A DNA stretch of 62,081 bases, filler included, from Collodictyon triciliatum (taxonomy: Eukaryota), in NCBI GenBank assembly GCA_043381765.1. It is 4 parts of 4 records of this genome, joined end to end, with 100 filler letters (N's around TTAATTAATTAA, not from the genome) between each part and the next. Parts side by side here need not be neighbours in the genome. Positions count along the whole stretch, not along the records: positions 1 to 17,344 come from JBHJMP010001459.1; 3 more parts are not named here. One strand, written 5' to 3'. The notes under the pieces were generated by a model. It was given only the letters and a program-made list of their open reading frames with translations, did no database searches and was not told the DNA's origin. This document shows, one piece after another, positions 1 through 20,800 of the stretch (position 1 is its first letter; the number at the start of each line of letters is the position of its first letter). The position numbers were made by a program, and so were the translations under genes.

Positions 1-103
1 CATATCATATCATATCATATCATATCATATCATATCATATCATATCATATCATATCATATCATATCATATCATATCATATCATATCATATCATATCATAT
101 CAT
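1..103. repeat. (CATAT)n microsatellite, intronic
   Basis: Perfect pentanucleotide tandem array. Confidence 0.97.
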
Positions 104-140
104 GTACAAAGGTTTTGATCTTAATATAATACAATAAAAC

Positions 141-782
141 CTCTGGTAATGCGGGATTGCTACTATCAAGGCGAGTGCTACAACCACTGCTAGGTCTGGA
201 AGAGGGTCGGGAAGCAAGCGCCGGTTTGGTGGAAGCAGCATAGGTAAGTGCGATCTGGTCTCTTCAGGCCGATGTGCACATATAGGTGTGTTTGTTTGCT
301 TTGATACGTTGAATATATCTGCAGACGACGCAAGAATGAAGCACGAGAATCACGAATCGGTCTGAAGAGACCCAGACTCAAGGGACTATGAAAAAAAAAA
401 AACGAAAGGCTATGAAGAAAAAAAAACCTCTTTCCAGGAACAAATCCCTTGTAGCCAGGCATGTAATGAGGTTCGCTGCCCACAAGCTTTTCAAACGAAG
501 GTTCCTCTAACGATGATGCTCATTCAATCGACCCATATTATTCTTGATATTCAGTCATATTTTCTCTTTTATCTTGTTTATTTGCCTTTTTTATGTTTTT
601 TTTTACGTTTTTCCTATGCTTCGGCTTGCAAACATGTAGTACACGTATATACTCTACTCCTGCACAACAGGAGCACCATTCCCATAAAAAAAAAAAAAAG
701 TAGGCCCAATAAAGTGTGAAAGACCTGCTCTGCGGAGTGGCTTTCGTTCGTGAGTGCGTGCGCTTTGCCCCTTGGAAGACAT
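141..782 (-). CDS. FAM166/CIMIP2-like ciliary microtubule inner protein, 5' part; gene continues off the left edge
   Basis: Hand-spliced exons ~782-725, ~506-429 and ~263-141 (GT-AG introns) give MSSKGQSARTHERKPLRRAEEPSFEKLVGSEPHYMPGYKGFVPGKRDQIALTYAAST. The H-x-PGY-x-GFVP...TY motif is typical of FAM166/CIMIP2. Confidence 0.55.
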
Positions 783-2036
783 GTCGATCCTGCGCTAATC
801 TGCTGAAGGAAAACAACGGCTTTGAGTCGGCGCAAAAGTCACAACCCGAAGTAAAAAAAAAAAAAGGAGTCTGCCATGACGCAATCAAAAGAAAGAGAAG
901 CGTCCCTGCGCTCCATGGCGGCAAGGGAAAAGACTTTTGCCTTGACAGAATGCGTTGTGCGGGTTTTCATGATAAGGCAACAAAAGCTTCGATGCTTGAG
1001 GATAGAGCCAGAGTCACAATGTCACTTTGTATCGCTCTTATCTTTTTCTTCCTTTTTTTTCTTCTTCTTTTTTTTTGGGGCGCCAATGATACAAAGGAAT
1101 GCCACGAAAAGCCGCGGCAGGAACAAGAGCAGGAATGAAAAGGAAGTGAGGGCAAAAGAGGCAGACACTTTGTTTTATCTCTTCCTGCGCTTTTGTTTAC
1201 ACTTCCCTTTTAATTCTCTTTATTTCTCTTGGTTTGCCTCTCTTCTCACTTTCCAAAGAAAACAAAAGGGACTGCACAATCATGGAAGACAAACATGAAA
1301 GGAAAAAGACATTGGCTGCCCAAAATAAATTGGCGATTGTTCCACAACAGTGCATGACAAACGCATTGTGCAGCTCCAGAACTGCGTTTATGATTGCCGT
1401 TACGGCTGGTTCTAGAATGTGTCCTGGAGAACCTATAACTATGGGTCAATGTCGCCAGTCCATTTGTGGATTTGGCGATTTTAAGTTAAAGGGGCGGACG
1501 GAGCTACCACTTGAATCTCGAAACGTGGCCGCGATTCTCTACCTCTGTGTTCGTTTGTTTTCGTGATTTTATTTCCAACGCATCCAAGCAGCTCAGTCGG
1601 CGGCAGAGAGGTGGCCCAAGCCAGAAGCGCACCAGAAATGCACCAGAGGCACCGGGCAGCAAAAGAACAGAAGACTCAGACGAGGTGCAAAGAGAGGCAG
1701 AATGGAGTAGGAGAGGAGGGAACGAAGGCAGAGTCGCCCATCTCTAGCGGCGTGTTCGAGTGGTTATCGCCTCCGTCTTCCACAATCCTCTCTCCACCTG
1801 CGTGGAGAAAGAGAGAGAAAGAGAGGTTTCGGATTCTCCCTGCACTTCCCATTCATACAAACAGTCATGCAGAGAAACTATCCAGAGGGAAAGAAAAGAA
1901 GCAAAAGGGCGCAGCAGGCCCAAGGGAATGCGTTGGCTCTCCATGACTTTTTCTCACTTGCAAGCGGACAGCGTGGCGCGCTCAGGGCGGAGAAGGAGAA
2001 GGAGAGAGAATCCAGGCCCGAGCCAAATGGAGCCGC

Positions 2037-3284
2037 CTAGCCGTCTGTGGAGACGCCCGAGAGCACGCGCGCAACCTTCTTGACACGGCCTCCATACTGA
2101 AGCAGAAGCGGAGTGGTGACCGAACGGTCGGCAAAGCCCAAGGCGGTGAGCTTCACATACGCCTTCTCCGGAATATCGGCCTCCTGCAAGACGCTTTCTC
2201 CTTTCTTCCTGGTGTGGCGGCGATTTCCGTGATGACGGTGGTGACGACCATGATGGTGGTGATGGTGATGATGGCTGCCGTCTTTTTTAGCTGGTTCCCG
2301 ATCTGACGACTCTGATGACGACGATGACGACGATGTTGCGCCTTCCTTAGCCAGTCCCTTGAGCGCCTGAATCTCAGCAATTCTTGCCAGCAGGACGTCA
2401 ATGTCCCCGTCAGCAACCAGGAAAATATGCTTGTAGCGGTGGCGCATGGAAATACTTCGCGTTTCCAGCAACCTGGCGAGTGAGGCGAACTCAAGACGCG
2501 GCGGGCGGTTCGGGCTGTGAGAGGGGCCAAAGCCGATACCTGTGGTAGAGTCGACTAGCGGCCAGACTGAGTTGGAGTTTTCCATCGACTCTGCATTCTG
2601 GAGTGTCGAGTCGACACAGATGAGAACCCAGCACTTGATGCGGGTCTTTCTGCTTTTCGGGTCGACCAGATGGAAGATGGCCAAGTAGGCGCCGTCTGTG
2701 TCGGGCGCTGTAAAATCCACAGCAACGGTGACTGCGTCACCTGCAGCAAGCGGCTCGCGACTCAGCGGGATAGAGCGCGGAAGCCCAAGTTGTGCGCTGC
2801 GGAAGCCTTTGACCAGACTCAGTGCGTATCCTGCAGGCAACTCTGTCTGCGATTGGTTTGTCACTGTCCACGTCTTGCGCAGGCTCGCCCGCGGCTTCAC
2901 TCGTGTACCATCGGCAAGGCTGCTCGAGGCGATTGAACAAAAGGCAGCCGGACGACGATGGAGATGACGTTGACGATGTTGGTGTTGATGTTGCTGCTGT
3001 TGTTGACTGGCGGGCTCGTCAGGGAAAGGGCGGGCAACCATGCGCACAATCATACCTGATTTGGAGGCTGCGAGCTCGATGGCCAGCTGGTACTCAGCCT
3101 CGGTGCTGAGGCGAATGAGCTCGTCCTCATCGTCGTAGTAGAAGAGTGCGTAGCTTGCAGCAGAGGAGCTGAGCAGCTCATTCACGCGCTCGACTAGACG
3201 CTCGTAGGTTGCTGGGAGCTCCATTCGGCGCAGCTCGTTGGAAGGAAGCAGCTGGATTTTGAGATGCATCTTGGTCGCGGCCAT
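2037..3284 (-). CDS. NBR1/p62-like selective autophagy receptor (PB1, FW/NBR1 Ig-like domain, UBA), intronless, 415 aa
   Basis: N-terminal PB1 with acidic OPCA motif (LFYYDDEDELIRLSTEAE); FW domain (DGTRVKPRASLRKTWTVTN...APDTDGAYLAIFHL); C-terminal UBA (LTALGFADRSVTTPLLLQYGGRVKKV). Confidence 0.8.
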   Translation of the reverse strand: MAATKMHLKIQLLPSNELRRMELPATYERLVERVNELLSSSAASYALFYYDDEDELIRLSTEAEYQLAIELAASKSGMIVRMVARPFPDEPASQQQQQHQHQHRQRHLHRRPAAFCSIASSSLADGTRVKPRASLRKTWTVTNQSQTELPAGYALSLVKGFRSAQLGLPRSIPLSREPLAAGDAVTVAVDFTAPDTDGAYLAIFHLVDPKSRKTRIKCWVLICVDSTLQNAESMENSNSVWPLVDSTTGIGFGPSHSPNRPPRLEFASLARLLETRSISMRHRYKHIFLVADGDIDVLLARIAEIQALKGLAKEGATSSSSSSSESSDREPAKKDGSHHHHHHHHGRHHRHHGNRRHTRKKGESVLQEADIPEKAYVKLTALGFADRSVTTPLLLQYGGRVKKVARVLSGVSTDG

Positions 3285-4080
3285 GGTGTTCCTTGTGTTT
3301 TCTTCTTCCTTTCTTCTCTAGCTTGTGTTTGCCTTTGGCTGGCTGGGTTGCTTGTGCTTGGTGGGGTTTGGCGTGGGCAGAGACAATAACGGCAGACTCG
3401 ACAGTCGACAGCGAAGGCACAGGCGATGTCTCCAAACGGCTTTGCGGGTGTGGAAAGCGACTCTGGGACAAACGGGGTGTGCTTTGCTCCGTGTGGATCG
3501 GGAGTGTGCAGTGATGGTCTGGCGGCGCGGCGATGCTTTGTGTGGCGAGCTGTGTGCTTGGATGTAGTAGATGACATGTGAGTTGGGGAGAAAATAAGGA
3601 GGAGATGAGAAGTAGGAGGGGTATATATACGTTTGGCAGGGCTTTGGAAGAACACGCGCTGGATTTTATATTGTTGGACACGTCATTCGCATGGCCGGAC
3701 ATGGCGTTCTGAGATGGTGAGATGAATTTGGGATAAGAATGGGTTTGGAGTTTTGCTTCGTCTAATACACAACCATACGCGATAGCATGTAATGCATCAA
3801 TTTGAAATATTATAATATCAATTGTAAATTTATTAAGACACTAATGCTTATTTACATATAAATTCCATATTTGTATATGATATGGTACTTGCAATTCCCT
3901 TTACGCTTCCCGTTTCGGCTGTTTGTTTTGTGCTGTTTGATCGAGTTTAAAGGCAAACGGATCGAATCGAAGCTATTCTGCTTGAATCTGTCAGGCGAAG
4001 AAGGATCAATATGAATGAAGACATAAGCAGCGTCTGCCTGGAGAAGTCCGAGCTCGGTGCCACAGAGACAGTAGATGCTG

Positions 4081-4980
4081 GGAAAAAGGAGAGAAAATAG
4101 GAAAGAAAAAAGGAAAAAAAGAAAGGAAAAAAAGAAAGGAAAAAAAGAAAGGAAAAAAAGAAAGGAAAAAAAGAAAGGAAAAAAAGAAAGGAAAAAAAGA
4201 AAGGAAAAAGAAAGGAAAAAGGAAAGAGAATAAAAGGAGAGGAAAAAAGGAAAGAAAAAAAGGAAAGAAAAAAGGAGAGAAAAAGCTTTGGGGCTATGTC
4301 TGGTGGAGAAAACCTTTTTTTTTTTACACAAGATACTGCATGTCCCTGGCCATATTTAACTTGCGCCCCCAGGAAGCGCTTTTGCGGATCTTGCTCATTT
4401 CTGAAACTCATATGCACATAATCACTTTTGTTTTCTCTCTTTTTTCTCTCTTTTTTCTCTCTTTTCTTTTTCTTCTCTTTTCTCTCTTTTATCTTTCTTC
4501 TCTTTTCTCTCTTTTATCTTTCTTCTCTTGTCTCTCTCTTTTCTTTCTCTTTTCTTTCTCTTTTCTCTCCTCTTTTTTCTCATTTATTTTCTTCTTTCTT
4601 TTCCTTTCTTTTCTTTTTCTTCTCTTTTCTTTTTCTTCTCTTTTCTTTTTCTTCTCTTTTCTCTCTCTTTTCTTTCTCTTTTCTCTCCTCTTTTTCTCAT
4701 TTATTTTCTTCTTTCTTTTCCTTTCTTTTCCTTTCTTTTCCTTTCTTTTTCTCTTTTTTCTCTTTTTTTCTCTTTTTTTCTCTTTTTTTTCTCTCTTTTT
4801 TCTCTTTTTTCTCTTTTTTCTCTTTTTTCTCTTTTTTTTCTCTTCTCTTCTCTTCTCTTTCTTCTCTTTCTTCTCTTTCTTCTCTTTCTTCTCTTTCTTC
4901 TCTTTCTTCTCTTTCTTCTCTTTCCTCTTTCCTCTTTCCTCTTTCCTCTTTCCTCTTTCCTCTTTTCTCTTTTCTCTTTC
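4081..4980. repeat. Purine-rich (GAAAAAAAGAAAG-like) tract at ~4081-4285 and a ~550-nt pyrimidine tract at ~4425-4980, probably in the first PLC intron
   Basis: Low-complexity tandem units; the pyrimidine tract ends at acceptor ATCATAG (4987). Confidence 0.9.
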
Positions 4981-4995
4981 ATCATAGTTGACGTT

Positions 4996-6414
4996 ATGGA
5001 TGCGCAACTGCCCGACCTTCAGATCTTCTTCCGCGGAACTAACATTACCAAGCTTTCCCACAAAGGGAAGCCCAAGGTAGAGAAGCTTCGCCATCGTTTT
5101 TCGTCTTCTTTCCCTTTTTAATTTTAATTTTGTACTTGCACTTAAAAATCATCGACTTGATAAATTAAAACAGAGAAGAATGTTCAATGTTTCCGCGGAT
5201 TCGCAATTTCTCACTTGGAAGTCGCAGCGAAAGAGACCCGAACAATCACGCAGTCTGTATATTCTTTTCCTTTTCTCTTCTTTTTTTCTTTCGCGTGAAA
5301 AATCATTTTCTTGCAATTATGTAACTTAGGATAGATAATAATAAAGTGAAAGAGATATGACGATTCACAATATAATTTTATTATTTTTTTTACTTTGAAA
5401 GGAATAAAAGAAGAATTATTATGTTAAAATCGTTCTTCAAACGAGGCAGTTGTGCTCAAGGAAATCGAGGCGATTCGCCCGGGCCAAACAACGCCGCTCT
5501 TTGGAGTATTCAAGAAGCCAGAGTTGGCTCCGTGCTCCATGTCCATTGTGTCGAAACAAGCTAATCTCGACCTTATCTTTTCGACGCAAGAGGAGATGGA
5601 AACATGGTACAAGGGACTCGTCGGACTCATGATTGTGGCTCAAGGACACATCACAAACACCCAAGTTCTTGACGAAGAGCTCATGTATTTTTTTTTTAAT
5701 ATTATCACCGCATGATTTTTTTTTTCATGTTTGGTGTACGAAGTCTATTCAAGAAACATGAATGGATGACTATTTTTATTTTATTTTATTTATTTAGATA
5801 TCTACTCATTTTCAATTCCTTATACTCAGGTTTGCTACACAAGAATGGCAACGATGCCAAAAGTCTTCAAATAATACAGTTACTTTCCAGGAGCTCTGTC
5901 AGGTTTTCAAGAAGATCAATATAGATTCTCCAACAAGCAAGATAAAGGAGCTATTTAACGTAAGTTTTTGTTTTGTGAAGATATTCTCGTAGTGTTGCTT
6001 TATCATAAATATGTTTTCAACCAATTTTTCAAATGACATTATATCTTAGAGGCAATAACCATTATGCTATCAAGATATATCATTTACCAAAATCCACAAT
6101 TAATCTGTTTTATTTCATCAATTTTTTTCGTATACATTTTTAATAATATTATTAATGGTGGTAATTATAAACTTCCCTAATAATAGGAAGCTGATAAAAA
6201 CCGCGACAATACCCTACAGTTCGGTGAGTTTTTGCATATTTTTGATCAACTACGAGTTCAAAAGTTTGTTCGTGAACTCTTTGCAGAGAAGTTTGGGGGA
6301 GCCGACAAGAGTGTAATTAGCTTCGACCAAATGCTCACCTTTCTCTCCCAGACTCAATTTGTAAGAATCCAGCTCAACATAAGCATTAAGTATTTGAAAA
6401 CAAAATTAATGTCT

Positions 6415-6488
<74 letters not shown>

Positions 6489-9400
6489 TATATTCTAAAG
6501 CTTCTCAATAAATTTGTTATCGATTTGCTTTACTGAGCCGGGTTTTCATAATTTTTATAAGAAAGAAAAGAAGAAATTAGATTCTTACAATTTATTGAAA
6601 TAGGAAAAATGGCAAAGGGAAAGTCTCATTCAGAGGATGTCTGCCTATAAGTGCACCGCTGAAAAGGGAATACCAGTCGTCGCTTTTTCATCTTTCTTGT
6701 TTTCAGCTGAAAATGGACTCATGAATCCTGGACATAAGGTTACTTATGTTCTTTTGACTTATCTAAATTTTTTTCTGGGTATGAGTCCTAATTTTTTTTA
6801 ATAAAATTTAGTGTCATTAAGTACATTTTGCTTCTTTCGGAAATAATAACATGTTTTATGTGATTATTGGTTAATTCTCCGTGTTGTAGATTGAAGTAAA
6901 ACCACATTTGTAGGTTGTCTATCAAGACATGCACCGGCCATTGACCCATTACTTTATCAATTCATCTCACAACACATATCTGGAAGGAGACCAGCTGAAA
7001 GGAAACTCAAACGTCAAGATGTATCAGAAATCTTTAGAGTTGGGTTGTCGTTGCGTTGAATGTTAGTATCGCATATATATTGAATCATTTACTTATTGTG
7101 TCCATTTCTTTTTCGTCTTTGTGTCAGCACTTGAAAATATAATTTTTGATGAAAATTCTCTCATGCACTCACAAATTTCCTCGTCTCATACTTCCAATCT
7201 ATATTTTCCTTTTTGTACACATTAACAAAAATACTTTCGAGGTTATCCTTTTTTTATTTAAAAAAAAATTAAATTAAATTAAATTTGATGAGTAAGTACG
7301 TGAATTATCAACAAATAGTGGACTGCTGGGACGGACCAAATGAACCAATAATCTACCATGGCCATACTCTGACATCCAAGATTTCCTTTCGTGATGTTAT
7401 CATGACATGCAAGGAATACGCTTTTGTTACATCCGAGTTTGTCCGCCTCCAATTCATGAACGACCGCATTTCTTCTTTTCTTTTTACCCTTTCTCTATGT
7501 TTTATGTTTTGGTTTCTTCTTTTCATGAAACTGAAAGGTACATCATTCTAAACAGATATCCTGTCATCCTGTCTCTCGAGAATCACTGCAGCCACGACTT
7601 CCAAATTCAAATGGCGCACATTATGCGTGAAATTCTTGGGGGTGAGAAAACTGAATTGTCTTATCAGAGAGAATAATTCATAATCAATACCCCTGTGCCA
7701 TCTTTCATATGTGTCTTTAGGATTTAATATTGTTTTACCCTTGATGTAGATTTACTCGCCGTGTCATATGTTGGTCAACAAATTGACGCATATCCATCAC
7801 CCGAATCGCTCAAGGGCAAGTTTTTGGTTAAGGTACACATGACTTACTTTCTCAGAAATGATATCAGTCGCTCAATAGAGCTGCAGGCCCCATGATTTTC
7901 ATGAAATCCCTCTACATTAACGCGTGGATTGTTTAGGGCGCTACCTTACCCATGTCTCAAATTCTTCAATCTGCCGCGCCAGTTGAAGAAGACTCTGGTG
8001 AAGAGTCTGACGAGGAAGACGATGATGACGGGGGTCAAGGAGATGCTGGTAAAGGTCAAGCAAAAGCTCAATCAAAAGGAAAAGGAAAAGCGAAAACTCC
8101 TAAACCAAAGGTAAAATTGAACATCCTTTTTCTTTTCTTTTCTTTTATCATATTTTGACCGTGAGCCAACTCTGCAATTGGTTTGAAATATGAATAAGGA
8201 GTAAGTAAGTCTCAGCGCGGATTTATCTACGTCGTATAATGCAAATATAATAGGTGGCTAAAGAACTCTCTGATTTGGTAAACCTCAAGAATACGCATTT
8301 TGTTAACTTTGAAACATCAGCTGGTAAGATTTCACATCAAAATGGTGTCTCTTTTAAAAATACCATGATAAAATCAAAAACAGGGAAGATATGGAGATGT
8401 ATACGATATGATTAACATGATAACGTTACCAACACACGCATACCATCTATTTCTTTCCCTGGAATATGATTTGACAGTTCCTTCACATTGTTATCAATTT
8501 ATAATCAGCTCGTTTTCGCTGTTATCATGCTTTTGCTCATGCTTTTGAATCAAATAAAGGAAAAAAATGCTTTTGCTCACGCTTTTACTTATTTTTTTTC
8601 TCTCTAATTGTTCTGTTCTAACTTTGCCAAATATCAGAAAAAGGACGTCCATATGAAATGTCTTCCTTTGCAGAGGGCAAAACAGAGGCTCTCTGTCAAT
8701 CGCAAGGGAAGAAATTCATTCAATACAATCGTAGACAATTATCTCGCATATATCCGAAAGGTATTCGTGTGGATTCCTCGAATTACAATCCGAATCTCGC
8801 ATGGAGTTGCGGATGCCAAATTGTCGCTCTTAACTATCAGGTTTCTGTAATCTCATGTTAAAAAAAGAATAAAGAATGATTGACTGGTACCTAGTATGAA
8901 GCTAACTAATCCTTTTTTTCTTTTTCTTTTCGGATAGATTCTTCACATTTCTGATTTTCCTTACTTTTTCATCTCTTTGGATAATGCACAAATAGTTACT
9001 TCACTCTGGACTAACTAACTATCTTGATAGACCCCTGCACTACCGATGTTTATGAATCTGGGAAAATTCAGAGACAACGGAGAATCTGGCTATCTACTAA
9101 AGCCTCAATACATGCTTGAAGGAACTCACTACGACCCCGCTGCTCGCCCATCATCTGCTGTCGATTATCAAATCAAGGTCAACATGTTTTTCTACGCTGC
9201 TAAAAATTCCTTTTTTAAAACAAACAAAACAAACAATACAAACAAAGCAACACAAAACAAAATGAAACATAATAAATGGCAACTCTAAAGAGAGTCGTAA
9301 CATACCATTCGGGTTTACTTTGACAATGATTGACGTAATGATTGAAGAAAAGAAAAGAAAAATGCCGCAAGAGGTAACCATCGGTCCATTCCATTCAAAC

Positions 9401-10212
9401 CCTGTCTTTTTGTATAACAGCTTATCTCTGGGACAAAGATTCCAAAACCCGATAACAGTCATAAGGGGGAGGTAATAGACCCCTACGTGATTATCAGCAT
9501 ATATGGCCACCCAACTGATGAGTGGAGCTTCACTTCAAAAGTTATCAATATCCTTACCAAACTTACCATCCGTATCTATTTCCCGTAAAATAAAGTAATA
9601 AAATATATATAAGAACAGCCATTCATCTAATTTGTCTTAACAAGCGAACATAACAATGGCTTTGACCCTGCATGGGGAGAGACAACCTCGTTTCGTGTGT
9701 CCTATCCCGACCAAGCTGTTCTTGTCTTTGAAGTCTATGACCATGATGTTGGTTCCAAAGATGACTTTATCGCCTACTACTCACTTCCCTTGACCAGCGC
9801 CAGAGTTGGGTAATTAAACGCTCATTTTCTCAGAGTATTACCTCTGTTACATTTGTTTGTTTGTTTGTTTGTTTGTTTGTTTGTTTGTTTGTTTGTTTGT
9901 TTGTTTGTTTGTTTGTTTGTTTGTTTGTTTGTTTGTTTGTTTGTTTGTTTTTCAGTGGTATTTCGGTTGTATTCTTGTTTCATAAAGTCACTCAGCCCGC
10001 AGATACACTGAACCATGCGCACCTTTTGAAGAATAACTTGTTGCAATTTTTCTTCTGTTGTCTATCAAAATCATGTCTTTTTTACTTAAAAATTATAATA
10101 AAATAAAACTAGACTCCGTTCAGTGCCGCTGCTGGATAAGCAACACACACCCATCACATTCGCGGGCCTCATGTGTCAGTTCTCCATTCTCAGTGCACAG
10201 CCATCAGCCTAA
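4996..10212 (+). CDS. PLC: Phosphoinositide phospholipase C, delta-like (PH, EF-hand, X, Y, C2), multi-exon; possible extra first exon from ATG 4011
   Basis: Spliced motifs: PH ([10 protein letters not shown]), EF ([14 protein letters not shown]), X box ([58 protein letters not shown]), Y box ([28 protein letters not shown]), C2 ([21 protein letters not shown]); stop TAA 10210-10212. Confidence 0.96.
9548..9649 (+). other. U12-type (minor spliceosome) AT-AC intron in the PLC C2 domain
   Basis: 5' end ATATCCTT, branch-like TGTCTTAAC at 9633-9641, terminal AC. Removal restores [12 protein letters not shown]; retention hits an in-frame TAA. Confidence 0.88.
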
Positions 10213-10532
10213 AAAATGAAAGTTCCCCGAACAATGCACCGTCCTTGATGAGTTTTCCACCTCGCTGTCGCAGAAGATACGAAGACGAAAAGCGAAAAAA
10301 ACAAGTATAAACTCACAACGCCTGGGTGTCGATCTGAACACAAAGGGGACGCTGTCAAGTGATAATTATGATATGCCATCGATACAAAAGTTCGAGCGAG
10401 GAGCATGTCAATCTAACACAATATTCATTTGACAAACAATGACACGTACACAAAGGCGAAAGAAAAATAGGGAATGTGGTGAAACCTGGTTTATACATTA
10501 AGATTATCCGACTTGGCTTAATGTTAGCCCTC

Positions 10533-12461
10533 CTAGGTGACCTCATGTAAACAGACGTTTTCACTAATGAAGAGAATGCGATTGGGATTTTTGAAGTAAC
10601 TCCAAAAGAAGCGAATAGAAAACAAGCACATAAACAAAAAGGATGAGGAGAGCATAGCTCTTGAAGACATGACAGGGTCTCCATCCATGTAAATGTACCT
10701 ATCGTCAGAGTATGTCTTCCCGATATTTAGCTTACAAAAGACAAATAATAACAGCATGCAAAGCACCCCAATTAAGGAGAAGTAAGAAAGCTTGCGATAT
10801 CTTGGGTTAAAGCAATCTATCATGACGAACCACAAGGCACATATGAGGTAGTAGGCGCAAAATATAATTCGGTAATCCCAATCACACAAGAGACCCGATG
10901 ACAGTATGATTTTGCAGGATAGGAAAGCCACGTACCAGAAATCAAATGACTGGACCATGTGGCGAAACATAAATAGATTTGTAGTGGTTAATATCTGAAT
11001 CATCATGGAAACGATGCTGAATAAAGTGATGGTTGTCGAGCAGAGACGAAACCCTGAAGGGGATTCAATTCCGACAATGAAGGGGAATGAAACAAAAATT
11101 GAGATTAAACAGCAGATTATAATAGTTATGTTATATAATTTGGAGCCCAGAACAACCGCGATTAAAGGGTATTTTCGCGAAATAAACTGAAACAAGAATA
11201 AATGGGCTTCATACTCCACAGTTTGACTTTCCATAATACCTATAGCGAGTTGTTTCTTGTTTAAATTATTGGATATTCCTGCCAGAGATATGTTCCTAAC
11301 CCCCGGAAAGCCATCTTGCCCATCGTCCTCTGATGGTTTACACGCAGAGTTACATGATTGATGACTCAAATCCGGCTCCTGTAGTGGCATGATGGAATTT
11401 AATTGCTTGTCTTGCGCATGGGCATTTTCTGTTGCAGTTTTCTTCAAACTATCTGCATGACTTTCTCGTCCTTGGATTTCAAAATGTCGTGATAGGAAAG
11501 TGATGTTTGATTCCTTCTTCAAAACGAAATTCGTGTACATAATTCGAAGCAAATATATAATCAGACTGCTGAGATTATCCATCGCTTGCAGCCGAAAGTC
11601 GACAAGGATAAGTCCATCGCTACCGAAGGTCAATTGTTCTTTTTTAAAGTCCATCAGTCGGAAAAATAAGATAATGAGGATAGGTGAAATGCTAGAAATA
11701 CCAAAAACAGATGCAAATCGCAGAGCCGATTTCTTCCTTGCTGCGTGAGCATCATAAAAAACAAGAACTAGCAAGATGCTGGTCAACATATGCAATGAGC
11801 TGCACACAATCTTTGCGTTGTCCCCCCACAACAGGACATAACGAAGTAGAAACGAGAGGGTGTTGTATACTGTGAACCAGAAGTTGAAAGACTTTGCTAG
11901 CTCCCGAATGATGCTAACACGTAGAAAGATAGACTGTAGGATTGTAAAATTCACGATTGATAGAAGTTGCATCGGCATGTATACGTCACTAGGGATGATT
12001 TCGTGATTGAATGATATGCCTATGACATTGACACAACAAATCGCCCAATGGAACCATATTAGAAATAAGGTGATGCGGTGTTTGTAAAGCTGAATGACTA
12101 TGTTGCGCACCATCTCGTTTGAGATTACCAGAGTTATGATTGTTTTCCTCCTGTCTATAAAATGGACATCTTTCTTAAGAAGCAGTTTCACACATCGCTT
12201 CTTGGTCGAGTTTATCTCGTTGTCCGACCTTGCATGACTTTTATCAGCTGCCCCTGTTTCATTTGGGGTATGAGAGCCAGCCACGCTTCTGTCTGTGATG
12301 TTGTTGCACTCTATCTTTTGGTTGCGGGCCTTTGATGGAGATGATTCACTTCGGTCGGCCCTGCAGGACTCTAGTTTGTTCTGTGTGGTTGGGATGACTT
12401 CGATCCAGACCTCATCTTGGATACTTGCGCTTTCAACGTCTTCCACGCACTCGATCTTCAT
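10533..12461 (-). CDS. Intronless 642-aa multi-pass membrane protein with two internally repeated halves, function unknown
   Basis: Long uninterrupted ORF with two hydrophobic blocks; ELAKSFNFWF...YDA is echoed by HMVQSFDFWY...IDC; hydrophilic linker between the halves. Confidence 0.85.
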   Translation of the reverse strand: MKIECVEDVESASIQDEVWIEVIPTTQNKLESCRADRSESSPSKARNQKIECNNITDRSVAGSHTPNETGAADKSHARSDNEINSTKKRCVKLLLKKDVHFIDRRKTIITLVISNEMVRNIVIQLYKHRITLFLIWFHWAICCVNVIGISFNHEIIPSDVYMPMQLLSIVNFTILQSIFLRVSIIRELAKSFNFWFTVYNTLSFLLRYVLLWGDNAKIVCSSLHMLTSILLVLVFYDAHAARKKSALRFASVFGISSISPILIILFFRLMDFKKEQLTFGSDGLILVDFRLQAMDNLSSLIIYLLRIMYTNFVLKKESNITFLSRHFEIQGRESHADSLKKTATENAHAQDKQLNSIMPLQEPDLSHQSCNSACKPSEDDGQDGFPGVRNISLAGISNNLNKKQLAIGIMESQTVEYEAHLFLFQFISRKYPLIAVVLGSKLYNITIIICCLISIFVSFPFIVGIESPSGFRLCSTTITLFSIVSMMIQILTTTNLFMFRHMVQSFDFWYVAFLSCKIILSSGLLCDWDYRIIFCAYYLICALWFVMIDCFNPRYRKLSYFSLIGVLCMLLLFVFCKLNIGKTYSDDRYIYMDGDPVMSSRAMLSSSFLFMCLFSIRFFWSYFKNPNRILFISENVCLHEVT

Positions 12462-13035
12462 CAGCTTTAGACTCCGCTTGTGACAGGTCTGAAGCTTTGT
12501 TCCACAGTTTTTTTTTCCTTCGGCTTCGGCTTTGGTGGCTCACCTGGCAGAAGGAAATGTTGAACTTTGATTAAGTTGCTCTCCAATAAGCAAAGGAAGT
12601 GCGTGTACTCTTTTCTTTCTTTGTTTTAGTAGTTTTTGTTCATTGCATCCACCGTGAATGTTTTTCTGTTTGAACACAAATCGATTTCTGGAGTCGGTTT
12701 TGTGAGAAAGGTTTTGTTTACCTTAAAGGCATGAATAAACGCTTTCTGTTTTGCCCTTGGAAAGGATAAATCAGATGAATCCAACACAATCGATCCTGCA
12801 TATTTTTTTTTAATATTTTTTATATTTATTTTTATATAATTATTGTAAACCTGTCCTCCATTCTGGTCAACGAACCTTCCAAAAAAAAAAAAAAAAACAG
12901 CAACCAAACTTCCCTCTCATTCCTGTTGGTCTGCCTTTTAAAAAAAAACTTTGGATCCTTTCTGGCGGAGTTCATATACTCAGATCGACGCTCTTACCTC
13001 CGTAGTAGTCCGCCAGCTTTCTTGCTTCTGAAGAG

Positions 13036-13301
13036 ATGATTTCCTCGGGGCCGTCCGGGTTTTGTAAGTGTACTTTTATTAACTGGATCAATGATTACTC
13101 GCATGTTATTTTCTTTTGTTGATTTTTTGCTCTCTCAAACTCATGAATATTAACGCACCCAATTCAAAGCTGGCTGGGTTATTCTGAAAGAAATTAAGTC
13201 CCTTTTTGTCTTTTACGTCTCTTTGTTTTCAATATTCTCCTCAAAAAATACCATTTCCATGACGTCTTACTTGCTGAAATCAGGAAACATCAATCCCACA
13301 T

Positions 13302-13376
<75 letters not shown>

Positions 13377-15483
13377 TTAAAAAAACGTGCATAATGGTCA
13401 ACGATGGAGTCTTTTTGTTTGAGTTGAATCGTTGTCATATCTAACAATCTAAATCAATTTCAGACCAAGCGCCTGTCACCATGATAATCCAGTGTATCAT
13501 AGGGTTATTCTTTTTCGTCAATGCCGATGGGGTATATTCATAATTGCAATCATCTCGCATCGTCCTCTTATCATTCCTTTTATGCATCCAAAAGATTTTC
13601 CGTTTCACAATCCATTTTTTAGATGAATGGTTCGCGAAATTCCTTACTTGTGTCTCTTCACCGGCTTCTCGGATTTGACAATGGTCTGCATGCAATCTAT
13701 GCGTTTCTTCTAATATACTCTTTTCGCCAATTCGAGAGAAGAATGAGCTCCAGAAAGTTCTCTGTTTGTGACTTATATTCATCAAATCTGTTTTAAACCG
13801 AAGTTTTGACACGGTGCATTTTAAAAAAAAACAATGATGTGGATGAGACACGTTTGGGTCCTAATTTGCTTAATGCAGTTTTACGTCCTCTTCCTCGGTG
13901 GATTATCTTTGCTGCTATACCTTCTAAAGTCAAAAGTTTTGTTGAAGCCTTCTCCTTTGCACATTCCGTACGATATTAGTTTATTCCATTTAGACATATA
14001 TGCATATCGCCGTTTCAACAATCTCTTTATGATTATATCGATGGTAAATATAGGTGCACTTTTAACAGAATTCGTCTACATTCCTATTTTTCCTCTTTTT
14101 TTCTAATACAGGACTGTATTCATCTTCGCTACGTTTATTCTTTTCTTTATTGATATCCCGAGTGTTCGCCAAGGGTCGGTTGTTGGGATTCCAATTTCTG
14201 AGAAAACAACAACTTATATTGTTGGGGGACTGGTATTTGTTGATAATTAAAGGACCCATGTAAAGCCAGGAAAACAATTCTTGATTGGATTTTCCGATTT
14301 ATTCATATTTTCTTTTCCATAGTATATCCCCTCCTATCGCTATTCCTTCATTTTCAATCTCATTTTCAATCTCAATTTCAATTCACTTTTTGGCAAAAAT
14401 GCAGTACTTGCTCACATCAGGCCAGAGCGTCCTTTGGAGCGCAATTGTCGGCACCATTTGGTAAGAATGATTGAGCCGCCAGATTATCACAATTCCCCTT
14501 TCCAGTGCCGATTTTTTAACATTCATAAACCTATTTCTTCCAAAACTTGAAGATGGGCAAGAGCAGAAAGTCAAATATGTTCAAACCGTTTGCATAACTA
14601 AATACATGCCTATCAGCGGTGCAACTTATCGAACTCGCTTTTTCCCTTTCCGCAACATGGAAATCATGAGAGCACTCTCCAGTTTCGGGTCGCAATACCT
14701 TTCCACTTGGATTCAGCCAAAGAATCCACGCAGACCTATCGTTTCAATCGCCGCGGTATCTTTCATTACGGAACCATACACATTCTTTACTTGTTATGTT
14801 TAATAGAGGACGATATGTTAATTGATTATTCACGCATATTTTTTTTGTTAGATTTATTAGATTGTCGACAAGTTGTTTTGGCCAAAAAAATATTATTATG
14901 TCAGAATCTAATTTTCAATGTGTTTAATTGCATTAGGGTCAGCAATTCATAAACGTGAATGAATTGGTATGGATGGCGAACCCAGGCCATTTATAAATAT
15001 ATGCATGACTCTGTCTTATCATCAATCATATCCTATTTCCCATACGATTGGTGTAATATTAGGGGATGAACGAACCTCAACCAAGGCAAATGAATGGAAC
15101 CCCACACCGCCGAGCAAACGCGGTAATTCATTATTTGCACGATATCACGCGTGTTTATAGCTCGTATTCGCGCGCTCTATATATATGGTTTCATAACTGT
15201 ATCCTCATAGAACCCTGAAGTTGAAGTCAACGAGGACCACCTTCACCAACTTGCTGGGTTTGTATTCTCTGTCATTTGGAATATTTCACGACATCCAAGA
15301 AGCGCTATAGAAGAAAAAAAAAACAATTGACGGCCTTCAAACGAAGAAATTCATGTACTCTCTTTTCCGTCTCTTTTTCTATACCCGTATTCAAGGATGG
15401 GATTCAGCATCGAGCAGGCTACACAAGCTCTACGCGTGACAAACAACAACATCGAGCACGCAGCTGCATTGCTTTTGGGTTAA
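13036..15483 (+). CDS. UBAC2: UBAC2/Dsc2-like rhomboid pseudoprotease with C-terminal UBA domain, multi-exon (missed by the ORF track)
   Basis: MISSGPSGF|YQAPVT start; IFATFILFFIDIP...VVGIPISEKTTTYIVGGL; YLLTSGQSVLWSAIVGTICGATY; UBA EDHLHQLAG|MGFSIEQATQALRVTNNNIEHAAALLLG-stop. Confidence 0.82.
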
Positions 15484-15589
15484 ATAAATAAATAAATAAA
15501 TAAAAATGCCGTTTAAATCAGTACAAACAAACAGACAAACAAATATCTAAGAGCCGAAGGAACATGAACCATATTAGAGTATGGTGAAT

Positions 15590-16360
15590 TATTGTGTGTC
15601 TCTCCCCGATGGTTTTCAGCTCGACTTGGGCTGCGGAGCTGTCCCTCTTGGGCAGTTTCCAGCTCACCTTACCGTCATTTCTTTCCTTCCAAGCCCATTG
15701 AACTCATCTCAGTCTACAATTAAATCGGAATAAGGCCTTGTCACGTCCCACAGCTTTTCCTGGCGGCAGCCGGCTTCCTCGTGCCACCTCCAGCACTCGT
15801 AGGAATAAGCGCTCCCTGAGCAATGCAGTCGACAGACCCAGAAGGCAGCAGTGCAAGGGGAAGAGGAAGAGTCTGGCTGAGTCACTCTTTCCCTGTACTT
15901 CAGTTGGGGTGTGTTTATTATCAGTCGAGGGAAGGTAGAAGGCGGAGGCAGAGGCAGAGAACACGGGCACTCCCGAGCGAGTCATAGTCCACTCCTAACC
16001 AGTACCTGAATGTAAATGGGCGGGTCAGAAGTGTGCAGGAAGAAGAAGACAGCAAGCCGCACGAAACCAAGGAGTAAGGGCAGAGTAGATTTGGCTCTGC
16101 GTCTGTGGAGGAATATGTTGGTCATTTGGAAATGCGAGCTCCACGGATGAGGCGCTAACATATGAAACTGACCGCGGCCGATTCGGCTCGCTGGGTTTAA
16201 TCTTGCGCAATCTGGAATCGGGCCCCCGGGTAATTAGCCCATGGGCCACTTGGGAGGTTTTCAGGCTGCCAGACTGGTGAGTGCCGAACTGAGTCAGCAA
16301 ACGCCCGTCTGACGCGCCTGTTAGGTCCCCCAGTGGCCCGGGCGAGAGGGCCCGGGTGAA
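15590..16360 (-). ncRNA. Candidate long structured non-coding RNA, identity unknown
   Basis: GC-rich island without recognisable protein; several nested helices whose wobble pairs read as G-U on the minus strand; found by eye only. Confidence 0.45.
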
Positions 16361-16519
16361 AGTTGCGCCTTGTGCTGTATTGTCGTTCGGTGGAGTTTGT
16401 TTTGTGAAGCGTGTGATTCGGCTGCTTACCTTGGTTGGTCGGCCGGCTTCTGTAGTTTCTTGGACTAGTTTGCGTCTTCTGTGGAGCGGCCTGCTTGCAG
16501 GTTGCTTGGTTGCTGATTG

Positions 16520-17137
16520 ATGGACTTTGACGTGAGGAATCGCTCTGAAGTGTATGATGACCATGATTCTTGGCAGGTTTATGAACACTAAGTAGACCAC
16601 ATGGTGAAACATTCAAAGAATTTCTGAAGAATTATTGCTTAGTATCAATATCAATATTTACAATTGAATATAATTATCACTTAATAAACGACTTGATGGT
16701 TATATGAAAATGAAATATTATTTTTTGGTTGTAAATTCCGCATTTATTAAAATCGATCTGGCCTATTGCGGAAACGTTTTTATGAAAAAGTGATCCTGCG
16801 AGTTGATCGTGTTTTTTTTTTATTTTTCTGTGCTTCTGATTCTGATCCAAGCGATTCATACGCAAGTATACGGAGGCGAAGATAGAACACTTCGAAACTC
16901 TGCCACAAAATACCCTGAGGATTTGGCTTCGCGGTGTGTTTTGACATTTATTTTATTGTCTGCAAGGAAGAAAAGAAAGAGGAAAAGAAAACAAAAAGGA
17001 AAGAAAAAGAAAAGAAAAAGACAAAGGCTGCGAATGGAGGCAGGAAAACTTGTGCAGCTTCTGTCGCTGTTAAACTTTGGACTGTCAACGGAGGACGATT
17101 TGCAGGCATGGAAGGACTCTAATCGCGCTGTGATTGG
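16520..17137 (+). CDS. 5' exons of an unidentified gene, truncated by the linker at 17345
   Basis: ATG 16520 and three exons joined by GT-AG introns give MDFDVRNRSEVYDDHDSWQ|RFIRKYTEAKIEHFETLPQNTLRIWLR|GKLVQLLSLLNFGLSTEDDLQAWKDSNRAVI. Confidence 0.5.
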
Positions 17138-17344
17138 TGAGTTATTCATTTATCTCCCTCTTGTGTAACACACGCAGTCAGCACTTGAGTCAGAGTCAGA
17201 TTTGTTTACTTGATGGTTTGTTTGCATGATTATTTTTTGGAGTAAAAAAGAATAAAGAATAAAGAATAAAGAATAAAGAATAAAGAATAAAGAATAAAGA
17301 ATAAAGAATAAAGAATAAAGAATAAAGAATAAAGAATAAAGAAT

Positions 17345-17444: not shown

Positions 17445-17604
17445 GCATAAAAACTTTTGAATAAAGGGTCGACATGGCATCGACAATGGGTGGATTCGTT
17501 TTCATCACGTTCGGATTCCTCGTGAGAACATGTTGATGAAGTACACCAAAGTCTCACCTGATGTAAGCCTAAACGCTCCTGAGAATGAAAAGCTAGATTT
17601 GACT

Positions 17605-17827: not shown

Positions 17828-20800
17828 AAATAGAAAAGATCGTTTCAGAGCTGAAGGCCGATCCGCTATTCAAGAATTCCGACCGCTACGACTTGACCCA
17901 GGATCAAAGTCGTGAGCGTTGTATCACAAAGGTATCCTTAGAACCCATGAGTTGTCTGTATTTTCACTGCTATAAATTTTGAAGTCTTTTTGAATGGCCT
18001 TCATGGTTCCTCTCAACTCAAAGTCTACAGAAAAAATATGTCTGCTTCTACGTTTTATTAGTTACATTACATCTAGTTCAAAAGTCTTGTCCGATGGTTT
18101 TTGGAGGACCCTGAAGATGACTCTCGTCTTCGAATGACTGTTGTTTCTTTGGCTGACCCGGAGCTTAATACCCGCATTGGTGTTCATGTATGTTCTTAAG
18201 TTCAAGGGATTTATCGTCAGAGAACTTGTACTTTAACTTGATCATCCTTTTCTTTCCTTTTGTTTTTATTTTAGTTTATCTGATCTTAAATTCCAATTCA
18301 TTCATATCGGCTGTTATTTTGGGAATTTTTTTTTAGTGTTTTTAGTTTGGTGCTTTGTTTTTAACTAAAGTGTTAATGCACAATGGCCGTTAAGTACGGT
18401 TTATTCTTTGGTGCTGTGCGTGGACAAGCAACTCCAGACCAGCTTCACCATTGGGTTACCGAAGGAATGCTCACTATGAACTTGGTTGGTTGTTTTGCGA
18501 TGACAGAACTCGGGTAATATATATATACTTGTCTATCCTTCCTGTTTTTTTTTCCTCGGTTATAATTTTTTATCAATTTGTCATATTGCTATTGTTTTTG
18601 GAATCTAGTAGATAACTGATGAGCTCACAATTCATACCTTAGTCATGGCTCTAATGTTCAAGGAATCGAAACTACCGCCACATATGACAAGTTTGTGATG
18701 GATTATCGAATAAGAAATACGGATCGTATGTGTGCTGAAATAAATAAATCAAAGTACACGAGAAGATAGGATGACCTCTTTCTTATTTGATTTATAGATA
18801 GTTTCTCATTTCAAAAAGATTATTTAAGTTGTTTATTTTCATTGAACAGAGCAACACAGGAGTTTGTGATTAACTCCCCATCTCTTACATCGACTAAATG
18901 GTGGATTGGTGGACTCGCCTCTAGTGCAACCCATGCGTAAGCTAGACCTCGATTCGACTTTCAAATACTTTGTTGAACAAAAACAGGAATAATCCTCTAA
19001 TATGAGGGGTTCCTTTGAAGACAAACATTCACAATCATATCTAACCCAATAAAATCATAAAGTGCTGTCTTTGCTCAAACAATCATCGACGGGAAGAAAT
19101 ATGGCGTCAAGACTTTTATTGTTCCTTTGAGAGACCGCGAAACATACGAACCTCTTCCAGGAAGAGAGATCGGAGATTGCGGTGCTAAAATGGTTTGCAT
19201 TATTTTCTTTTCTATGATATTCAAATATTATACGTCATGCACATCATAAATACCATAAAATTGGCAATCTGCATAAAAACTTTTGAATAAAGGGTCGACA
19301 TGGCATCGACAATGGGTGGATTCGTTTTCATCACGTTCGGATTCCTCGTGAGAACATGTTGATGAAGTACACTAAAGTCTCACCTGATGTAAGCCTAAAC
19401 GCTCCTGAGAATGAAAAGCTAGATTTGACTGTTTTTTTTTTTTTTTTCCTCCAAAGACGATGTAGAGTTTAATTAAAAATTTTTGATCCCGTTTAAATTA
19501 TGGTTTATTTTGACTAAAAACATATCATATTTCACAGGGAGTTGTAACCGAGCCCCCGATGCAACAGCTCGCATATGGAGCTCTGATTCTTGGGCGAGTG
19601 GAGATTGTGAAAGGTAAACCCATAAGGGACAAGATAAAATTGAAATTTTTTTGCGTTTATCAGGTTTTGGCAATCTAGTATATGTCTTTGATTAACTCGC
19701 CTCGTATTCGTCAAAATAAAGACTCTGCAAACTTTTTGAAAAAAGCCATCACCATCGCCACGAGATATGGCGCTGTTCGCAGACAATTTTCTACCCGTGT
19801 TTGTATATTGCCATCCATATTATATAGGTATATTTAGTATCTTACGATATTTATGATATCCTAATTTTTATTTTTCATCATACTTCATTACAGCCTGGCG
19901 AGCCTGAACGCAAAATCCTGGATTATACAAACCACCAGTATCGTCTGATGCCCATTCTGGCCACGTCAGTGTTTTAGTCTCTTGATTGGTCCATTCGTGA
20001 TTGTATTGCAAATTTTCCTTCTTCAACACTATCGACAGAGCCTATGCCATGGTTTTTACTGGAAAGAGGCTAAATGAGATTTATCGAGATTTGATTGAGC
20101 TTTTGGAAAGTGGCGATGTAGAAGTAAGCAGATGAATCTCTAGTCAACCTTGGTTTTTTGAATCATGACGCTAAAAAAATAATTATCAAGGATGCCCTCC
20201 CAGCTCTGAAAGAGACTCATGCCACAAGTTCTGGATTGAAAGCCTTCTTTACGTGAGTTTATTGATGCGTATTTTTATCATGTCCAAGCCCCAAGGAAGA
20301 ATAAAAAAAAAATCATGTCCAAGCCCCACTCTCGCCTGCTTAAAGTAAAAATTAAAGCCAGGACCAGTGGGAGAATGACCAGGTAAGAAAAATTAAAGCC
20401 CTGCATTTACTAGATGGTATGTGCTTTCGGCCATTGAAGAATGTAGACAGTGCTGTGGTGGTCACGGCTATTCAGCGTACACAGGCCTATCGTCACTTTA
20501 CAATGACTACGCTGTGCAGTGCACGTGGGAGGTGATACTTGGGCTCTCTTTTTGGTTTTCTTTGCCTATCATAATACTATCAAGTTATGGCACATATCTT
20601 TAATTTTATTTTTCACTATTTTTGTCTTTATCTTTACTTCTTTTTTTTTTAAAAAAAAATGCTCCCAGGGAGATAACACGGTTTTGACTCAACAAACAGC
20701 TCGCTACCTTCTAAACTGCTTCAAAGAAAGCAGAAGTGGAATCCGTCAGGCATAATTTAATATATATGTGTCATCTTTTTTTCCATTGTACACCATTACT

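Follow-up and report, generated by a model that had tools for sequence, protein, structure and literature searches.

Box H/ACA RNAs are typically 120–160 nt long (PMC3542256), and yeast has H/ACA RNAs of 200–600 nt with long 5′ and internal hairpins (PMC7601244; PMC13015370). The distance from the top of a pocket to its box is given as 14–15 or 14–16 nt (PMC2664660; PMC7601244), and natural guides pair with their targets over 8–17 bp (PMC6800473). SNORA24 is the human box H/ACA guide for U609 and U863 of 18S rRNA; U863 is the uridine of the context GGAA[U]AAU, as a splint oligonucleotide in the same paper indicates (PMC6776443). A neighbouring site is human 866, equivalent to yeast 808 (PMC8522698). 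The same region of the ribosome has a chaperone, snR30, which acts on the h20–h23 and ES6 domain of 18S rRNA (PMC12095548). Dual functions are also described for two long yeast H/ACA RNAs, snR10 and snR37 (PMC2879522; PMC13015370). Descriptions of H/ACA RNAs are sparse for many protists; for Dictyostelium, one box H/ACA RNA is mentioned (PMC8817022).

We analysed a 62,081-nt stretch of DNA from Collodictyon triciliatum (GCA_043381765.1), called the window here, whose positions 1 to 17,344 come from JBHJMP010001459.1. Positions 16369–16113, minus strand, very probably encode a long box H/ACA guide snoRNA. We base this assignment on the fold, the presence of both boxes and both pockets, complementarity to 18S rRNA and representation in RNA libraries.

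Results

A single structured unit within a GC-rich island

A first-pass annotation had proposed a highly structured RNA of about 750 nt at 15590–16360, within a GC-rich island holding no recognisable protein. The island is real: GC content is 0.52–0.61 across 15600–16399, and about 0.3–0.4 in most flanking windows. None of its five small open reading frames has a Pfam match, in agreement with the annotation. Dispersed, transposon-like copies were not found; a DNA search of the genome returned one match, a single-copy result for paralogues within BLAST range. The Rfam scan that the annotation had suggested gave no match in the window at gathering score, and the only three at E≤10 are all at chance level.

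The proposed extent of structure did not hold up. When 15590–16360 is folded whole, it is no better than its shuffles on either strand (minus, z −0.92, with 2 of 20 shuffles equally good; plus, z −0.93, with 5 of 20). Sliding folding windows place the minus-strand signal at 16360–16231 (z −5.4) and 16200–16071 (z −4.3), and give none below 16070. Indeed, 16113–16369 folds at z −5.72 with 0 of 200 shuffles as good, and 15596–16112 folds at z +1.09 with 87 of 100 as good. Positions 16369–16113 are the only structured part of the stretch on the minus strand, and one 750-nt structured RNA is not supported.

The structured unit has the architecture of a box H/ACA RNA

The unit is about 257 nt long. 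It reads, 5′ to 3′, as a pocket hairpin, an H box, a hinge, an internal hairpin, a second pocket hairpin, and an ACA box followed by three nucleotides; the minimum free energy (MFE) and centroid structures agree on this hairpin–hinge–hairpin–tail fold. We place the 5′ end between 16362 and about 16374. The earlier boundary at 16360 cuts through the lower stem of the first hairpin (16368–16363).

The 5′ hairpin (16205–16368, 164 nt) is present in both MFE and centroid structures and includes the inverted repeats I1 and I3. Its lower stem pairs GCGCAA (16368–16363) with UUGCGC (16210–16205). An 8×8 internal loop follows, made of the pocket strands CUUUCACC (16362–16355) and AUUCCAGA (16218–16211). 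Above it rises a long, unbranched upper stem (16354–16219), which is the nested 5′ hairpin that the first-pass annotation had recognised; all five helices it listed are found in both MFE and centroid structures. One A separates this hairpin from the H box, AGAUUA (16198–16203; consensus ANANNA), whose single-stranded state is predicted with unpaired probabilities of 0.93–1.0 over 16204–16199. The pocket top lies 15 nt from the H box.

The hinge is single-stranded in the predicted fold and contains the element UUAAACCCA (16192–16200), the first three nucleotides of which are the last three of the H box. An 18-nt internal hairpin (16174–16191), again in both MFE and centroid, links the hinge to the 3′ hairpin (16120–16173). 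The latter has a lower stem GGUCA/UGACC and a 7×7 loop with pocket strands GUUUCAU (16168–16162) and UUCCAAA (16131–16125). One A after it comes the ACA box (16118–16116) with its tail UAU (together 16113–16118). Here the distance from pocket top to box is 13 nt, slightly under the 14–16 nt of the literature, or 14 nt with the closing A-U pair open. Among dinucleotide shuffles, an H-type pocket hairpin occurs in 1 of 250, an ACA-type one in 1 of 250 and both together in 0 of 250, figures that are somewhat overstated because boundaries and thresholds were set after inspection of the sequence.

Searches for relatives gave little. None of the 21 matches of a metagenome pattern scan is related and none extends beyond the pattern; a viral scan found no homologue. 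A loose pocket pattern, with 431 matches in the genome, was uninformative.

The unit is found in RNA libraries

Of 24 sequencing runs listed, 20 contain part of the stretch; we examined four (X1, X2, X4 and X8), all in the form of contigs, which fix neither the ends nor the level of an RNA. Contigs of at least 99% identity from three studies cover 16119–16362 between them (X2, 16121–16333; X4, 16119–16330; X8, 16123–16362). All three stop within 16119–16123, 3–7 nt before the region of the ACA end, a weak hint that the RNA 3′ end lies there. At the other side, the X2 and X4 stops at 16333 and 16330 lie on either side of a variant at 16331 and probably reflect breaks in the assembly. This variant, seen in X1 as C>T, or G>A at the RNA level, falls within a G run of the 5′ hairpin and can be absorbed there by a register slip.

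X1 holds spliced RNA, as its contig confirms three GT..AG introns (skips of 96, 88 and 138 nt) in the neighbouring UBA-domain gene (14936–15473, plus strand; UBA domain E 3.6e-7). Another X1 contig spans 15901–16382 and runs 212 nt past the ACA box. Behind 16382 and 16401, X1 has loose ends of 21–22 nt, which we take to be the SMART template-switch oligonucleotide. Read in this way, they place 5′ ends on the minus strand at 16382 and 16401, and support the strand that the first-pass annotation had favoured.

The unit is flanked by an A/C-rich precursor leader (16370–16534, minus) and a 3′ trailer (15901–16112, minus). X1 marks two 5′ ends for the leader, 16401 and 16382, and low-depth contigs of X2 and X4, for which the data do not give the strand, cover 16374/16381 to 16531/16534. 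The trailer is the region of the long X1 contig beyond the unit and has an AAUAAA at 15919–15914; 16110–15900 folds at z +1.06. The donor-like site AAG|GUAAGC that the annotation had noted is present at 16430/16429, but the X2 and X4 contigs cross it unspliced. In the four runs, neither the donor at 16429 nor either acceptor (16103 and 15547) takes part in a joint, and an intron model for the region is unsupported. Cover is absent over 15539–15893 in all four runs and over 15894–16106 in X2, X4 and X8, which in contigs carries no evidential weight.

We propose that the unit would be trimmed from a longer Pol II precursor that begins at 16401/16382 or near 16534 and has one 3′ end near 15900. 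This precursor could be transcribed independently or come from a non-coding host, as one of its introns. Yeast snR30 and intronic U17 are parallels for trimming of this kind (PMC7601244).

The two pockets have predicted targets in 18S rRNA

We searched 18S, 5.8S and 28S rRNA of the same genome for pocket targets. Each pocket can form a two-sided pairing of 8 bp or more that flanks a U-N left unpaired. The best site of the 3′ pocket in the whole set is U892 of 18S rRNA, with 5+7 bp (12 bp) that leave U-A unpaired at the pocket top. This score is matched by 22 of 300 shuffled rRNA sets, or 8 of 300 without offsets (p about 0.03–0.07 for the 3′ pocket alone), a test that takes no account of the coincidence of U892 with a known pseudouridine position. 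The U863 splint oligonucleotide (PMC6776443) is complementary to the bases that follow GGAA[U]. The shared context GGAA[U]AAU makes U892 the equivalent of human U863, and we predict from this pairing that the unit guides pseudouridylation of U892.

The 5′ pocket has two equally good sites in 18S rRNA, U1026 (4+7 bp) and U719 (8+4 bp, several of them G-U). Its score is matched by 76 of 300 shuffled rRNA sets (p about 0.25), and either assignment is weak. Matches of both pockets within 150 nt occur in 38 of 1,500 shuffles, a frequency explained by the resemblance of the two pockets to each other. A search of 15560–16440 for long ungapped antisense to rRNA gave a best score of 35.5, inside the null range of 29–40 (40 shuffles).

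The hinge complements the rm2 site of U17/snR30

The hinge element UUAAACCCA is an exact Watson-Crick complement of 18S 945–953. These positions align with the ES6 consensus uugguuuu, which is rm2, a binding site of U17/snR30. The Collodictyon rm2 reads UGGGUUU where the consensus is uugguuu, with G for one U; the hinge reads AAACCCA where the m2 motif of U17/snR30 is AAACCAU, and has a C that matches the base change in rm2. The Collodictyon 18S rRNA (2153 nt) also carries a 23-nt insertion in ES6 (18S 900–965).

Four 9-mers of the unit match rRNA somewhere, and a 9-nt hinge match occurs in 97 of 300 shuffles of the whole rRNA set and in 81 of 5,000 shuffles of 18S 850–1060. The combination of sites is rarer: in a post hoc test, the 3′ pocket site and the 9-nt hinge match fall within 150 nt of each other in 1 of 1,500 shuffles, and the hinge and both pocket sites do so in 0 of 1,500. 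Without the nucleotides of the H box, the hinge pairing is 6 bp (−7.6 kcal/mol). We suggest that the hinge could pair with 18S 945–953 as an accessory anchor that keeps ES6 open. We regard this as a serious possibility that falls short of even. A literature search, mostly at the level of its listings, turned up no paper that describes an H/ACA RNA pairing its hinge with rm2.

The downstream part may hold a second guide

GC content stays at 0.54–0.55 down to 15596, and we looked for further RNA features between 16112 and 15596. Of 15 D boxes, counting both strands, the highest-ranking one belongs to a candidate box C/D guide module (15900–15924, minus), with a C′-like CUGAUAA at 15924–15918 and a box D CUGA at 15903–15900. 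Before this box D lies a 16-nt antisense (15920–15905) to 18S 208–223 with one mismatch, a fit found in 1 of 150 shuffles for this guide and in 3 of 150 for any of seven minus-strand D boxes. The X1 contig end at 15901 adjoins the box D. The AAUAAA at 15919–15914 accounts for that end equally well. A scan for RUGAUGA found no proper C box upstream of the module; words with at most two mismatches to box C are CUGAUAA at 15924 and two others, both within the H/ACA unit. A second guide, of the C/D type, in this part of the island seems doubtful, though worth keeping in mind. If present, it might end near 15898, and the rest of the island would be trailer. Clusters of snoRNAs are common in protists (PMC8817022; PMC3542256).

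The GC-rich remainder (15596–15899) has no significant minus-strand structure. A scan for further H/ACA hairpins gave weak candidates only, and Rfam at E≤10 gave no match within 15580–15880. A pocket hairpin before the second ACA (15599–15597) was not found; an m2-like AAACCAU (15615–15609) stands 9 nt before this ACA, unaccompanied by a U17 hairpin. The second multibranch domain that the first-pass annotation had drawn at about 15960–15778 appears in the MFE structure, but in no other. The separate 3′ hairpin of the annotation folds better on the opposite strand (15611–15690, plus z −3.9, minus z −0.2). That strand has a hairpin with G-U pairs in its favour at 15627–15666, about 140 nt past the stop of the UBA-domain gene.

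Neighbouring features

The gene that the annotation had placed at 16520 is a frame of 23 codons only (16520–16591, plus strand), and the next long coding start seems to lie near 17034. Beyond the join, the same exon-like frame occurs twice, at 17461–17600, directly after the N gap, and at 19287–19430. It is probably an assembly duplicate, of a gene that we take to be acyl-CoA oxidase-like. A 668-aa open frame on the minus strand (10533–12539) has many hydrophobic segments and no Pfam match.

Alternative readings of the locus

The first-pass annotation had inferred a divergent telomerase RNA or a new long non-coding RNA. Its broader claim, that a structured non-coding RNA is transcribed from the minus strand, is borne out; the class is very probably that of an H/ACA snoRNA instead. 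A single 750-nt RNA (16360–15590) would accommodate the GC content that persists to 15596, the X1 contig that continues beyond the ACA box, the complementary ends of the island and the second ACA at 15599, and for the telomere repeat of this genome there are seven candidates. Against these points, the folding signal is confined to the 5′ unit, and the ACA at 15599 lacks a preceding pocket hairpin. The ends are complementary as the annotation had noticed, but their pairing is not in the MFE structure, and its 5′ arm is consumed in the first hairpin of the unit. Moreover, the annotation had seen no convincing telomeric template, and neither do we: the longest matches to the seven candidate repeats are 5–8 nt. 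The H/ACA domain of an animal-type telomerase RNA forms the 3′ end of a longer RNA that bears the template. That layout is not seen here, as the H/ACA unit sits at the 5′ end of the island. A telomerase RNA is not supported for this stretch, and a single 750-nt RNA of either kind is very unlikely. As for the repeats themselves, the genome has three matches to five-fold TTAGGG/TTGGGG, the sole TTAGGG array being internal to its contig; a reversed control of this pattern has 643 matches, which suggests a very common GGGATT-type repeat.

The hairpins might instead be the structured leader of an mRNA with a small frame (59 aa, 16161–15985, or 93 aa, 15985–15707), the boxes arising by chance. Such an mRNA would suit the X1 contig at 15901–16382, with AAUAAA 13 nt before its end. 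Yet this contig terminates within the 93-aa frame, for which there is no usable Atlas match, the Pfam search of the frames was empty, and shuffling did not reproduce the two-box architecture; we give this reading very little credence. Still less, next to nothing, is left for a divergent RNase P, RNase MRP or U3 RNA. The word GAGUUCAAUGG (15705–15695), in which the first-pass annotation had seen a likeness to CR-IV of RNase P, is present, and a few words near 15820–15620, which we take to be U3-like, can be counted on the same side. Canonical genes for all three RNAs lie on other contigs (RNase P, 58.6 bits; MRP, 59.1; U3, 73.9), and local alignments of either part of the island to them are at null level, 6–49 of 50 shuffles being as good. 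With the empty Rfam search of 15580–15880, this largely refutes the reading, and the annotation was right to doubt RNase P.

The RNase P and MRP genes (L004, about 450–460; L006, about 743–752) share a word AACCCA(C/T)A some 60–80 nt upstream, which is absent upstream of the H/ACA unit; it resembles an upstream promoter element of social amoebae. A scan for bacterial promoters did no better than chance and has no bearing here.

A U17/snR30-like role is a further alternative

Alternatively, the same H/ACA RNA could serve mainly as a folding chaperone for the central domain of 18S rRNA. It would hold rm1 through the 3′ pocket, rm2 through the hinge and helix 23 through the 5′ pocket, and would supplement or replace U17/snR30. 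The layout of the unit is snR30-like. The motif GGAAU of rm1 falls within the stretch of 18S rRNA covered by the 3′ pocket, the hinge fits the rm2 position, and the three sites are antiparallel, in order and within 150 nt, all in the h20–h23/ES6 domain. A canonical U17 was not found: RF00045 reached at best 28.8 bits (cut-off 74) in the genome, RF01271 nothing, though a control for the latter was likewise without matches; neither family matches in the window. Two U17 motif patterns gave 27 and 14 matches in the genome against 12 and 10 in a reversed control, which is about chance level, and no convincing hairpin.

On the other side, the geometry of the unit is that of an ordinary guide. It is complementary to rm1 and rm2, but through its pocket top and its hinge, and m1 and m2 are outside their U17 positions. 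The 5′ strand of the 3′ pocket is GUUUCAU, not m1, AUAUUCCU(A/G/U), and m2, AAACCAU, is absent at 7 nt before the ACA at 16118. The hinge pairing past the H box is only six base pairs. Humans carry U17 as well as a guide, SNORA24, for the same uridine. Because the assembly is broken into 14,576 contigs, failure to find U17 does not show that it is absent; a U17-like candidate with a weak full-length match and altered motifs is in fact present. We consider a mainly chaperoning role unlikely. That the snoRNP clamps these three sites, its hinge having followed the base change of this lineage in rm2, and took over the essential U17/snR30 role, with the local U17-like gene losing its m1/m2 match, strikes us as equally improbable.

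The U17-like candidate is a GC-rich, full-length but weak match to SNORA73/U17 (locus L005, 1501–1718, minus strand; C1604:9826–10043) and is the source of the 28.8 bits. It has a U17-like 3′ hairpin, and a 71-nt stretch where the model has 12. Its m1 and m2 are altered and do not fit rm1 and rm2 of the Collodictyon 18S rRNA; it is possibly a diverged U17 or another H/ACA RNA. Three other candidates were rejected: L068, U17-like by pattern, folds at z about 0 to +1; the unit as U17 itself has no m1 or m2 in its 3′ pocket; and a U17 built from the m2 at 15615–15609 and m1-like words near 16116, 15809 and 15732 has no joining lower stem and a spacing of 9 instead of 7. The genome has two matches to the Fcf1 family (Utp23/Utp24).

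Discussion

As a box H/ACA guide, the unit at 16369–16113 would, by family resemblance, bind two sets of Cbf5/dyskerin–Nop10–Nhp2–Gar1. Its 3′ pocket would pair on both sides of 18S U892 in ES6 and direct formation of a pseudouridine there, and its 5′ pocket would perhaps do so at U1026 in helix 23. More speculatively, and by analogy with snR10 and snR37, the RNP might also aid folding of the 18S central domain with its hinge on rm2.

A long H/ACA guide that Rfam misses is a useful annotation, and the prediction is that the ES6 pseudouridine of human position 863 is found in this microbial eukaryote too. The hinge–rm2 pairing, if true, would give an H/ACA RNA an unusual hold on rRNA and would be informative about the relation between the U17/snR30 chaperone and ordinary guides. 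A takeover from U17/snR30, if true, would mean that an H/ACA RNA recognises rRNA through its hinge and that a modification guide has displaced a processing RNA supposed to be universal.

SNORA24 is one close counterpart. It belongs to the same class, and U892, the predicted target of the unit, corresponds to human U863, at the base of ES6. The two differ in that the unit has no Rfam match that would indicate sequence homology, and its second pocket misfits the U609 site. Moreover, the unit is about 257 nt long, against the typical 120–160 nt (PMC3542256).

In layout, the unit resembles U17/snR30/SNORA73, in which a long 5′ hairpin and an H box precede an internal hairpin, a 3′ hairpin and the ACA (PMC7601244; PMC2664660; PMC12095548), and it shares with these RNAs complementarity to both rm1 and rm2 of ES6. 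It differs in the means: m1 and m2 are missing from the 3′ pocket, rm1 lies at the pocket top with its U unpaired, and rm2 is met by the hinge. Furthermore, snR30 has no counterpart to the pocket that the unit carries at guide distance in its 5′ hairpin.

The long yeast RNAs snR10 and snR37 offer a third comparison. Their pockets modify 25S rRNA, snR10 has a 7-nt element in its 5′ hairpin and snR37 scaffolds through proteins, whereas the predicted element of the unit is in the hinge. Like the unit as predicted here, they are oversized H/ACA RNAs that combine a working pocket with extra elements, and they set a precedent for linking modification to processing or to scaffolding.
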